From positions 2,262 to 66,261 of the forward strand of contig JACZXZ010000008.1 in NCBI GenBank assembly GCA_022571365.1: a DNA stretch of 64,000 nucleotides, in the 5' to 3' direction. Below are positions 52,963-55,604 of the stretch, piece after piece. A program made the translations under genes and the position numbers. The DNA is from Pseudomonadota bacterium (GTDB lineage: Bacteria > Pseudomonadota > Alphaproteobacteria > G022571365). A model generated the notes under the pieces. The model saw only the letters and a program-made list of their open reading frames with translations, was not told where the DNA came from and searched no databases. The stretch's first letter is position 1. The number at the start of each line of letters is the position of its first letter.

Positions 52963-53165
52963 CTGTGCTCGGCCGCTCCAGGCCCGAGCCACGGGCCGGC
53001 GCGGCTTGAGAGCCTATTTGAGGGATCCGGCCCGGTCGCGCGCCCGCACCGGGAGGCGCCCGCCCGCTGTTCTTAAAACCAACCTGTAAGATGGTGGCGG
53101 CCGTCCCGTCCCTATGACAGGGGGGAAGACCCGACGACTACCCAGAGCCAGAGCCCTTTGTCTTT

Positions 53166-53194
53166 GATTCTATTCTTGGCACGGCCTCCGCCTC
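53166..53194. repeat. Downstream copy of the 29-bp direct repeat flanking the AT-rich Hint-domain cassette (partner at 53713-53741)
   Basis: gattctattcttggcacggcctccgcctc versus gattctattcttggcacggcgtccggctc (27/29 identical). On the minus strand both encode AVPRIES. Confidence 0.8.
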
Positions 53195-53248
53195 GCTGGA
53201 CTTCGTCGCCCCGGGCGAGCCGCTGTTTTCAACCTCCTCCGCCCTTAA

Positions 53249-53290
53249 TTATGCACCAAAAACACTTCCTTCTCATCCTTATCAGAAGAT
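53249..53290 (-). repeat. Truncated duplicate of the last 13 codons plus stop of the Hint-domain gene (SDKDEKEVFLVHN*)
   Basis: Minus-strand tctgataaggatgagaaggaagtgtttttggtgcataattaa duplicates 53296-53337, which encodes SDEDEKEVFLVHN then KIQ*. Confidence 0.8.
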
Positions 53291-53291
53291 C

Positions 53292-54500
53292 TTATTGTAT
53301 CTTATTGTGCACCAAAAACACTTCCTTCTCATCCTCATCAGAAACAAAATAATTATGTGTTCCGTTGACTGTTAGGTTGAAGACTTGTACTGCTTTCTCT
53401 ACTTTCTTTATACTTTTGATTTTGATGTGTGAGTTTCCAAGTACTTTGTCTCCAACTTTTAGCTCCGCTGCTTCTTTCCAAACATCATTACCAACAGCAA
53501 ATGGATGCGTACCAGTAACTTTAAGATTATCGTTAAGCAGCAAATATGAAGCTACTTCTATAGTAAATAATCTTGTTACTTTGCTGTTAACTTTTTTATT
53601 TGTATTAAAATCAAAGCTTTGTACTTCTTCTCCTTCTTCAATTTCTGCAATAGGCTTGAAGGTGTTGTCTGCCATTAAGACTTTGGTGTCAGCAGTAAAG
53701 CAACCTGGTGCCGATTCTATTCTTGGCACGGCGTCCGGCTCCTCCACCACCGGAGGCTCCTTGATGAGATCCGTGATCGGCGGGAAGAACGCACCAGTCA
53801 CGCCAGACTCATCATAGAATTTCCCCCAAGTACGCTGTTCCCACAGCGTAGTCGGGAGGGGAATGGTTGTTGGATAGAGCCCTTCATAAATCTCCCGCGC
53901 GATGTCGGGCGGCGCCGACGCCGCCGGCGTCGGCGCCGCGTCGGGCGCGGCCACGGTGGAGGCAAGCCCCGGGGTGTCGATGTTCACCGTCACGCCCTCG
54001 AGGTTGGAGATTGCGAGCGCGCCCGCGCGCAGGATCACGGTCGTCGCCCCGTCCGGCGCCACGAACAAGTCGAAGATCGTGCCGCGGACGCCGATGATGG
54101 CGACCGGCGTCCTGATCTCGTAGGACGCCGACGCCAGCGAGCCCGAGACGAACCGGAAGACGCCGACGGTCGCCGACATCACGACCTTGCTCACATTGGG
54201 ATCGGGATCGAACACGAAGGTATCGAGGACCAGCCGCGATTCCGGGCCGATCGACATCGTCGTCTCGTCCAGGAACAGGAGCTGGGTCGAGCTCTCCACT
54301 TCGGTCTCGATGGCTTCGTTGTGGAACAGCCGGTCGCCGATCACCAGCGTTCTCTCCTGCTCGGCCAGCGTGCCATGGACCAGGTTCACCACGGCCGCGG
54401 TGACGCCGATGCTCTCCTGCGCGGCGGCGCTCGCCGTCCAACCCGCGAGTATGAGGCCCGCGGCAAGCGCATATCGGACGGTCATGATCAGAACTCCCAT
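53292..54500 (-). CDS. Secreted FecR-like domain protein with a C-terminal Hint / bacterial-intein-like (BIL) domain
   Basis: Signal peptide (MTVRYALAAGLILAGWTASAAAQE), a FecR-type beta region (VAIIGVRGTIFDLF), a Pro/Ala/Thr linker, then a 133-aa Hint domain. The Hint domain begins at Cys (CFTADTKVLMADN), has block B TGTHPF (TxxH) and ends VFLVHN, then KIQ-stop. Its coding segment (~53249-53700) is AT-rich and Lys/Asn/Ile-rich, unlike the rest of the gene. Confidence 0.8.
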   Translation of the reverse strand: MGVLIMTVRYALAAGLILAGWTASAAAQESIGVTAAVVNLVHGTLAEQERTLVIGDRLFHNEAIETEVESSTQLLFLDETTMSIGPESRLVLDTFVFDPDPNVSKVVMSATVGVFRFVSGSLASASYEIRTPVAIIGVRGTIFDLFVAPDGATTVILRAGALAISNLEGVTVNIDTPGLASTVAAPDAAPTPAASAPPDIAREIYEGLYPTTIPLPTTLWEQRTWGKFYDESGVTGAFFPPITDLIKEPPVVEEPDAVPRIESAPGCFTADTKVLMADNTFKPIAEIEEGEEVQSFDFNTNKKVNSKVTRLFTIEVASYLLLNDNLKVTGTHPFAVGNDVWKEAAELKVGDKVLGNSHIKIKSIKKVEKAVQVFNLTVNGTHNYFVSDEDEKEVFLVHNKIQ

Positions 54501-55604
54501 GCGACGCTCACCCCGAAGGAGTGGTTCTTATATCTCTTTTGGGGATCGTTTGAGTAGTTGTTCTCGAAGAAATAGCGCAAGACCAGGGTCACCTCCGGCC
54601 GCAGAAACTCCGAAACCACGACTTTGGCGCCCGGGGCGTACCGCCTGTCCTCTCGGTCCTCCACCTCATCCGGGTCGTGACCTATGTAGTCCCGGTACCA
54701 TAGAACTAACTCGGGACCAGCCAGGACATTGTCGTAAACCGGGTAAAGGTACTCGGCCTGGGCGCTGATCTGGTGATAGCGATTGCGATACTTACCGGTA
54801 TCCCCACCACCCCTGGCGCCATTGAAGATGTAACGGGGCATTGTTATGGACAGCACATCTTGGGTGGCGGCGGCGGCCAGGTTGGTCCATTGGAACCTCG
54901 GGGCCACCTCGAATACCACCGCGTCGCGTCCGGTTCTCTCGGTGTTGTAGTCCTCGAGGGCAAGCCGGAGGTCGAGCGTCCGGAGAATGCCGGGGCCGAG
55001 CTTCTCGAAGTTGACGACGACGCCGGCCGAATAGAACAGGAACTCGCGGTCAAGCGCCGCGTAGGTCAGGGCGACAGCGGGGCGGACCTGCCACCGATCG
55101 GGCAGCAGGAGAAGCGGTCCCGATTGCGCGCTGACCAGGTACAGATCGGCCGCCTGGAAAGCTACATGGGCGTCCCCGTACAGCTGCGCGGTGGTCCGGA
55201 TCCGCCGGTCGCCGAGCACGCGCTCGTCCCGCACGATTATCGCCGCCGACCCGGAGTGATCGCCAAAGGTGCCGACTTCCTCCTCGCGGTGCGGCGCGTT
55301 GGTATCGTACCGGTAGCCGAGGATGGCCACATACGCCGTCCGGCTGGGCTCCAACAGCCTGCGAATGCGCGCCGCCTCGGCCAAGGCCGTCGCGTTCTCC
55401 GGGTCCTGCAGCAAAAGCCGCTCGTAGGTGGCGAGCGCCTTCTCCAGCTCGCCGCGCTCCTCGGCAAGCCGGGCGTAAAGCAGATTGAGCTCCACGTCGC
55501 TCGGGTTTTGCAGGAGCCGCTGGAAGACGGATTCGATGTCCTCTGCGCCCTGGGCCGAGCCGATCAGCAAGCCAAATGCCAGAAAGACGGCGGCTGCGCG
55601 CATC
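54488..55604 (-). CDS. TPR-containing beta-barrel outer membrane protein (DUF560/Slam-like architecture), operonic with the FecR-Hint gene
   Basis: Signal peptide MRAAAVFLAFGLLIGSAQG, ~70 aa of TPR-like helices (LYARLAEERGELEKALATYERLLLQDPENATALAEAA), then ~280 aa of alternating amphipathic strands ending in the OMP signature ...FGVSVAWEF. The stop overlaps the downstream gene start. Confidence 0.6.

Follow-up and report, generated by a model that had tools for sequence, protein, structure and literature searches.

A compositionally foreign A-type bacterial-intein-like domain at the C-terminus of a FecR-domain protein, present in some strains of an uncultured alphaproteobacterial genus

The window analysed here is a stretch of 64,000 nt from a Pseudomonadota bacterium of the class Alphaproteobacteria (contig JACZXZ010000008.1, positions 2,262 to 66,261, assembly GCA_022571365.1), and our subject is a minus-strand gene within it whose product has a signal peptide followed by a FecR domain, a disordered linker and a C-terminal Hint domain (Table 1). 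The segment encoding the Hint domain, hereafter the cassette, has a foreign composition, continues the reading frame of the gene, encodes a structurally complete domain and occurs in some strains only, and the native 8-residue tail of the protein survives downstream of it as an orphan. An earlier examination of the letters alone (the sequence-only reading) had described an AT-rich, complete 133-residue Hint fold within a GC-rich gene, and this description holds: the domain matches the PT-HINT family with E 5e-12, and G+C is 0.31-0.37 over positions 53225-53675 against about 0.65-0.70 in both flanks. When the window is divided into 160 bins of 400 nt, the lowest value falls at 53201-53600 (G+C 0.375), the second lowest bin being at 0.537. 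The G+C content at third codon positions (GC3) is 0.29 in the Hint domain, 0.61 in the linker and 0.91 in the FecR part (residues 1-200), and ranges from 0.77 to 0.90 in sucA, sucB, the outer-membrane protein gene, cobT and cobS; neither G+C nor codon usage is therefore uniform, and the GC3 contrast indicates that the anomaly is one of codon choice, beyond amino-acid content. Indeed, in ten other loci with related Hint domains the Hint and the N-terminal part that precedes it have similar GC3, from which it follows that the contrast is specific to this lineage and does not result from the amino-acid composition of Hint domains. A general tendency of the Hint to have lower G+C than its host, which total G+C had suggested, was discarded, as GC3 reveals it to be an effect of amino-acid composition with a true codon contrast in this genus only.

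Table 1. Coordinates of the features of the FecR-Hint locus within the window.
Feature	Coordinates	Strand	Basis or remarks
Whole gene: signal peptide, FecR, disordered linker and C-terminal Hint, 402 residues	53292..54500	minus	Open reading frame list, Pfam, AlphaFold
FecR domain PF04773, residues 63-161	54018..54314	minus	Pfam E 3.7e-9; native composition
Linker, residues 201-266, hypervariable, predicted disordered, ending in the conserved AVPRIES motif	53703..53900	minus	pLDDT about 40; allele comparison
BIL / PT-HINT domain, Cys267-Asn399, 133 residues, foreign, A-type	53304..53702	minus	G+C 0.35, GC3 0.29
Present gene end, Lys-Ile-Gln-stop	53292..53303	minus	From 56-nt tandem duplication of the cassette 3' end
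Second copy of the last 13 cassette codons plus TAA, SDKDEKEVFLVHN-stop	53245..53286	minus	Repeat and frame reading
Remnant of the Gly-rich tail of the cassette plus stop	53229..53244	minus	Frame 1 reads IKGGGG-stop; one base off ...HN-KGGGG-stop
Direct repeat copy 1, AVPRIES-coding, in the expressed gene	53713..53741	minus	Cassette 5' junction just after ...GAATC
Direct repeat copy 2, AVPRIES-coding, in the displaced 3' end	53166..53194	minus	Repeat comparison
Displaced orphan host 3' end, AEEVENSGSPGATKSSEAEAVPRIESKTKGSGSG-stop (...AEAVPRIESKTKGSGSG-stop)	53138..53242	minus	Third frame; identical tail and downstream DNA in Hint-less L005, L006, L007, L124
Upstream partner gene, overlapping the start of the FecR gene: signal peptide, short TPR region, 14-strand outer-membrane beta-barrel	54488..55603	minus	Context, outside the cassette

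The identity of the domain was analysed through sequence profiles, catalytic landmarks and fold. The match to PF07591 (PT-HINT) scores 46.7 bits against a cutoff of 27.7 and covers profile positions 6-136 of 137, and the Pfam families Intein_splicing and Vint also score above their cutoffs, whereas PF01079 (Hog) reaches 27.7, under its cutoff of 29.7, over the first 45 residues alone. All the landmarks that the sequence-only reading had named are present, with Cys267 opening the domain (CFTADTKV), TGTHPF as block B, VFLVHN at residues 394-399 and then Lys-Ile-Gln and the stop; the +1 residue is thus a lysine, and no Cys, Ser or Thr nucleophile is found at that position. All 23 invariant positions of the subfamily alignment are kept, including the first cysteine (Cys1), TxxH and His-Asn. 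The solved structures closest by sequence are 8W20 (E 3e-9) and the bacterial-intein-like (BIL) domain 2LWY (E 3e-8), and in agreement the top Foldseek matches in the PDB are the Tetrahymena BUBL BIL2 (6Y75/6TMM; E 1e-10, 25% identity) and the C. thermocellum BIL 2LWY (TM-score 0.86), with mini-inteins ranking after the BILs and Hedgehog 1AT0 and 6TYY being much weaker. Profile and fold matches alike are therefore in line with the Hint/BIL assignment made earlier.

The A-type class of BIL domains is reportedly the subject of Amitai et al. 2003 and Dassa et al. 2004. Judged from sequence, every testable feature of this class is found here, namely Cys1, the TxxH block, the terminal His-Asn, the absence of a +1 nucleophile and of an endonuclease, and location in the hypervariable region of a secreted protein. 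A-type BILs are defined by a C-terminal His-Asn as in inteins (PMC4031507), and BIL domains are found in hypervariable regions of non-conserved, usually secreted proteins (PMC7765530); the known examples share with the present domain a Hint fold of about 135 residues. Unlike them, it lies at the extreme C-terminus followed by three residues, with no downstream polypeptide to be released or ligated, and its gain has been caught at population level, with GC3 of 0.29 against 0.91. Mini-inteins (Ssp DnaB, Npu DnaB) have the same fold and catalytic blocks, but the domain is not a canonical intein, given the +1 Lys, the 133 residues without an endonuclease, the variable C-terminal host site in place of a conserved one, and a stop codon of its own by which the host end has been replaced and not interrupted. 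It is likewise not a Hog domain: although the Hedgehog/Hog proteins also have a secreted N-terminal domain followed by Hint, a Gly/Cys-Phe junction and thioester-mediated release of the N-part, which is predicted here, only three residues follow the present Hint, with no sterol-recognition region, and its end is the His-Asn of inteins.

The window lies on a 67,287-bp contig of a metagenome-assembled genome (MAG), and the alleles with which it was compared come from other metagenomes of the same genus. They share the gene order cobS-cobT-outer-membrane protein-FecR gene-sucB-sucA, their flanking coding DNA is 93-99% identical in nucleotides, and they represent strains or species of one uncultured alphaproteobacterial genus. 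Across these orthologous loci the cassette is polymorphic, being present in four alleles (the window, L001, L002 and L003) and absent in at least eight (Hint-less alleles L004-L007, L124-126, L129, P0005, P0006 and P0009). In a protein search the Hint-bearing relatives P0001-P0003 were 83-87% identical overall and the Hint-less P0004-P0010 were 76-95% identical over the shared part. The Hint-less proteins end in AVPRIES followed by a tail of 8-9 residues, and in DNA every Hint-less allele reads ...GCCGTGCCAAGAATAGAATC, then A(A/G)AGACAAAGGG...TAG and then TCGTCGGGTCTTCC, which is the same as the orphan and the DNA downstream of it in the window; written as ...CCAAGAATAGAATC-AAAGACAAAGGG...TAG-TCGTCGGGTCTTCC, the empty sites match the window orphan. 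The P0009 allele, a more distant orthologue, ends in GVPQLERDVKKEGSPP. The codons for PRIES and the 8-residue tail (window 53141-53179, minus strand) are CCA AGA ATA GAA TCA AAG ACA AAG GGC TCT GGC TCT GGG, and the same codons are found in L004-L007 and L124.

The stretch that leads from the FecR domain to AVPRIES cannot be aligned between alleles, each of which has a linker of its own assembled from a few recurring modules, and it recombines freely in the population. Two further assemblies of related strains, L127 (12372-12806) and L128 (12259-12447), break off within the FecR gene, directly ahead of its hypervariable linker, consistent with strain heterogeneity interrupting the assembly there. 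That the AT-rich segment is a chimera of MAG assembly or a contamination is extremely improbable: the window does come from a MAG contig and related assemblies break inside the gene, but the same in-frame junctions recur in four assemblies, three of which (L001, L002 and L003) derive from other sample records, and the cassettes differ by 0-9 substitutions between assemblies.

The near-identical 29-bp direct repeats that had been noticed on either side of the cassette agree at 27 of 29 positions, and the window contains two copies of their 20-nt core GCCGTGCCAAGAATAGAATC and no more, where shuffled sequences predict none. Such bracketing of the cassette plus 63 nt, seen in the same arrangement in L002 and L003, would be expected of a site-specifically integrated mini-element with the repeats as attL/attR or as a target-site duplication and with its recombinase encoded elsewhere. 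The repeat is, however, a coding motif that belongs to the host, and each Hint-less allele has it once; the core is counted twice in the window, L002 and L003, and only once in L001, which carries the cassette with a different 3' junction. Moreover, the downstream copy always reads GAGGCGGAG... and the upstream and empty-site copies read GAGCCGGA(G/C)..., and this consistent difference at 1-2 positions identifies the repeats as two allelic versions of the host AVPRIES-coding segment and not as a fresh duplication or att sites. No recombinase gene adjoins the cassette. The core was not found elsewhere in the window or outside this locus in 133 fetched loci; a single IMG/VR match to the core lies in an unrelated open reading frame and was set aside as a chance match. 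We thus consider site-specific integration quite improbable, and among the mechanisms that the sequence-only reading had offered it is C-terminal module swapping or displacement that fits best, the site-specific insertion being disfavoured by the nature of the repeats and by the single copy in L001.

The 3' end of the cassette is itself repeated, with 40-nt repeats at 53248-53287 and 53304-53343 that are identical at 38 positions, and the present HN-Lys-Ile-Gln-stop end is the result of a later 56-nt tandem duplication. The truncated duplicate of the last 13 codons and stop, reported before, does exist, although at coordinates 4 nt away from those then given. It is probably the original end of the cassette. 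In the closest relatives the proteins finish in KGGGG, KGGDG, KAGGD, KGGGI or KTGDN and a stop, and the fact that the second copy is one base away from the typical KGGGG-stop ending indicates that the cassette came with its own tail and stop codon. The arrangement of cassette, 40-nt duplicate and orphan is the same in L002 and L003. Upstream of AVPRIES the orphan has GC3 of 0.86 in its own frame against 0.57 in the other two, and this host-like value in one frame only points to former host coding sequence. The proposal that the out-of-frame remnant is a displaced ancestral 3' end is confirmed by the Hint-less sister alleles, which end identically and are followed by the same intergenic DNA.

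A low-GC C-terminal module that joins at a short conserved motif and leaves the old C-terminus downstream as an orphan with a short homology tract is also the signature of the CdiA, Rhs and MafB polymorphic-toxin loci (Zhang et al. 2012, PMC3482391). The cassette might accordingly be read as a degenerate module of this kind, in which PT-HINT was once accompanied by a toxin and an immunity gene and the toxin was later lost, the locus serving now or formerly in interbacterial competition. The best Pfam match is indeed the pretoxin Hint family, and the best solved-structure match by sequence, 8W20, is a large "Intein C-terminal splicing domain-containing protein" with its Hint at 1080-1220 of 1368. 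Despite the PT-HINT match, the contextual definition of a pretoxin Hint fails here because there is neither a toxin domain nor an immunity gene: no toxin or immunity open reading frame lies between the gene and sucB, and the incoming module is a processing domain only. In addition, all close Hint relatives (at least 60% amino-acid identity) stop 4-5 residues past His-Asn, both junction types at this locus have their stop 3-5 codons past it, and what precedes the Hint is a small protein with a FecR domain and none of the Rhs, filamentous-haemagglutinin-type or MafB-N carriers. We regard a toxin ancestry as highly improbable.

A second type of 3' junction is found in L001. Its 5' junction is as in the window (AVPRIES-Gly-Cys...), whereas its protein ends in HNKTGDN-stop, with a single AVPRIES copy; after the stop come 110 nt and then DNA that is 97% identical to the 5' part of a gene for a 343-residue membrane protein. 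In L004 (2108-3556) this multi-pass membrane-protein gene lies between the FecR gene and sucB, and L001 (7087-7700) keeps its 5' third only. Comparison with L004 therefore indicates that the L001 cassette took the place of ~950 bp, made up of the tail, the DNA between the genes and some two-thirds of the membrane-protein gene. Between the FecR gene and sucB lies an insertion and deletion hot spot. Within the window-type alleles, the window and L003 have the very same 399-nt cassette (100% identity), although 15 of 570 positions differ between their FecR parts (97.4% identity) and their linkers cannot be aligned; from this combination we infer that the cassette or the adjoining linker was recently exchanged by homologous recombination.

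Taken together, these results suggest that the 3' end of the FecR gene probably gave way to a piece from the 3' terminus of a foreign low-GC gene, a piece that comprises a complete A-type BIL with its own Gly-rich tail and stop. The cassette would have entered and spread by recombining through the conserved 5' region of the FecR gene, with the AVPRIES-coding motif as the limit of the anchoring homology, and the 3' side would be an illegitimate join, that is, homology-facilitated illegitimate recombination (HFIR). HFIR is a process established from natural-transformation studies, and it is suggested here by a homologous-side junction that is constant and another side that is variable, the outcome being a duplication in the window-type alleles and the ~950-bp deletion in L001. 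Later moves of the cassette between alleles may have taken place by ordinary homologous recombination, and recombination between the two AVPRIES copies could delete it again.

The source of the cassette was sought among its relatives. An exhaustive HMMER search of 1.84 billion cluster representatives returned 8,813 relatives at E<=1e-3, 63 of them at E<=1e-30. The closest outside the genus (P0134, P0011, P0121 and P0013; 65-73% amino-acid identity) have the Hint at or near the C-termini of unrelated proteins, most without a recognisable N-terminal domain and one with Ig-like repeats. The P0011 contig has 42% G+C and GC3 of 0.30-0.37, and its Hint is 71% identical in nucleotides to the window cassette; together with the GC3 contrast, this composition of the closest sampled relative is in keeping with the low-GC foreign origin proposed earlier, and from its sequence the contig is a plausible kind of donor, though not the donor itself. 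P0011 (L013 3328-5349) is a mosaic of a complete Hint, a different second Hint and a duplicate of the C-terminal half of the first, and offers a further example of a Hint whose 3' end has been partly duplicated. In the top 153 proteins, 228 of 230 full domains begin with Cys, which is preceded by Gly in 98 of the 228; the residue after His-Asn is Lys in 166 of the 230, and no more than 10 residues separate 39 of the domains from the end of their protein. Members of this subfamily (P0130-P0273) often stand head to tail, in arrays of 2-10 copies whose only spacer is Lys-Gly-Gly(-Gly) (HN-KGG(G)-CF).

A scan of one genome per species with the full protein gave distant FecR relatives (38-53%) only, with no genome of the same genus and no close Hint, a word-indexed protein search with the Hint alone gave 9 matches, too few for a fair picture of the family, and an exact look-up of the window protein gave no identical record. 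Viral collections contain Hint relatives of at most 39% identity that fit ordinary phage inteins; the cassette DNA is absent from them and no phage vector was found there. Other alphaproteobacterial FecR-Hint proteins (L015, L018, L019 and L021) have a Hint only 46-48% identical to the present one and with native GC3, which argues that the FecR-Hint fusion arose independently. In L015 (4888-6951) a DDE_3 transposase gene lies directly upstream of the FecR-Hint gene, and the outer-membrane partner is absent there.

At the protein level the mechanism can be proposed by analogy with A-type BILs (PMC4031507, PMC7765530). After export the Hint would fold and Cys267 would attack the carbonyl of Gly266, giving a thioester by N-S acyl shift, so that the domain is predicted to cleave itself off between Gly266 and Cys267. 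Resolution of the thioester by hydrolysis or by an amine would release the FecR part plus linker, lacking the native 8-residue tail alone, and Asn399 could cyclise, freeing Lys-Ile-Gln only. As the added domain would largely remove itself, we infer that its insertion is tolerable and close to harmless, as with inteins, and a near-harmless acquisition fits both the patchy distribution and the damaged 3' end.

The same chemistry might instead have been recruited for a function, the Hint thioester serving to ligate the FecR-linker part to a cell-envelope or protein amine, comparable to Hedgehog cholesteroylation or to lysine conjugation by Tetrahymena BILs. The best structural match, BIL2 of the BUBL locus, forms lysine isopeptide conjugates (PMC8616854), its thioester being resolved by a lysine amine; unlike the present domain, it is eukaryotic and has ubiquitin-like domains on either side, with nothing comparable beside the Hint here. 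The Gly-Cys-Phe junction and the terminal position are like those of Hedgehog, the subfamily prefers Lys at +1 (166 of 230 domains), FecR-Hint fusions exist independently in another alphaproteobacterial lineage, and the pairing of the gene with an outer-membrane barrel means that the protein may reach the surface. Against this, only some strains have the cassette and no change that would compensate for it was seen, its composition has not ameliorated, a duplication or frameshift has damaged its 3' end, and no acceptor is recognisable from the sequence. Recruitment thus appears unlikely, yet it deserves more weight than the alternatives discussed above.

A number of observations weigh against replacement of the gene end by a foreign, self-removing domain. 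No donor has been found among the HMMER relatives, the best of which reach 65-73% in amino acids and 71% in nucleotides. The events may have run in the opposite order, the Hint-less alleles being deletion derivatives of Hint-bearing ones. In all alleles, Hint-less ones included, the codons of PRIES and the tail are mostly A/T-ending (8 of 12, P ~1e-5 at GC3 0.88), in a genome of GC3 about 0.9; perhaps the native end was an earlier foreign acquisition, or the Hint-less alleles are such deletion derivatives. The 63 nt between the cassette stop and the second repeat copy encode a linker, NSGSPGATKSS, that is confined to window-type Hint-bearing loci among the alleles sampled. Greater conservation of the cassette than of its flanks was considered as a sign of a recent sweep, but the two differ little, at low counts, and the ratio of nonsynonymous to synonymous polymorphism (pN/pS) in the cassette, 0.26-0.9, derives from 6-9 substitutions, too few to separate selection from neutrality. 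Decay of the cassette could already have begun, with the 56-nt duplication at its end as a first sign. Finally, Cys-dependent chemistry in the oxidising periplasm is uncertain, and autocleavage is a prediction drawn from the analogy above.

In homologues the start codon corresponds to the second ATG, at 54485 (MTVRY...), and the signal peptide is of the Sec type and lacks a lipobox. An AlphaFold model built from 44 sequences has the FecR beta-sandwich at a predicted local distance difference test (pLDDT) score >90, the linker (residues ~205-258) at ~40 and the Hint at ~95, and in Foldseek the FecR domain matches the PupR C-terminal domain (6OVK). Window positions 53909-53939, inside the gene, form an inverted repeat with two perfect 15-nt arms 1 nt apart (GCGGCGCCGACGCCG / CGGCGTCGGCGCCGC), in the Ala/Pro-rich segment right after the FecR domain where the alleles start to diverge. 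The partner outer-membrane protein was considered as a Slam/DUF560 protein and rejected, as TPR_Slam gives an insignificant E of 0.3 and no DUF560/Slam barrel family is among the Pfam matches, the architecture alone being similar.

BIL/Hint domains are known from hypervariable regions of secreted bacterial proteins, and to our knowledge the movement of those without an endonuclease is poorly documented. What is known here is the kind of domain, an A-type BIL; what is new is its FecR-domain host, its strictly terminal position and a population-level snapshot of its gain, in which an unoccupied site and the displaced end are found together with two types of junction and the domain has been caught soon after transfer. 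More tentatively, and with a probability that we judge low, the subfamily could be an endonuclease-free, self-erasing selfish domain that captures the 3' ends of secreted-protein genes across distant lineages, or alternatively its thioester could couple the carrier to envelope amines. In the selfish case the domain would have passed from a low-GC donor into a 67% G+C alphaproteobacterium and would be tolerated through self-cleavage after export, the subfamily being marked by Gly at -1 and Lys at +1, by a Gly-rich tail, and by domains that are often arrayed head to tail and often terminal. With an un-ameliorated cassette, empty and occupied alleles, an original end that has been kept and two 3' junctions, the route of a domain-level horizontal transfer becomes reconstructable, and the matched alleles with and without the Hint provide the means to test the effect of a terminal BIL on its carrier protein.

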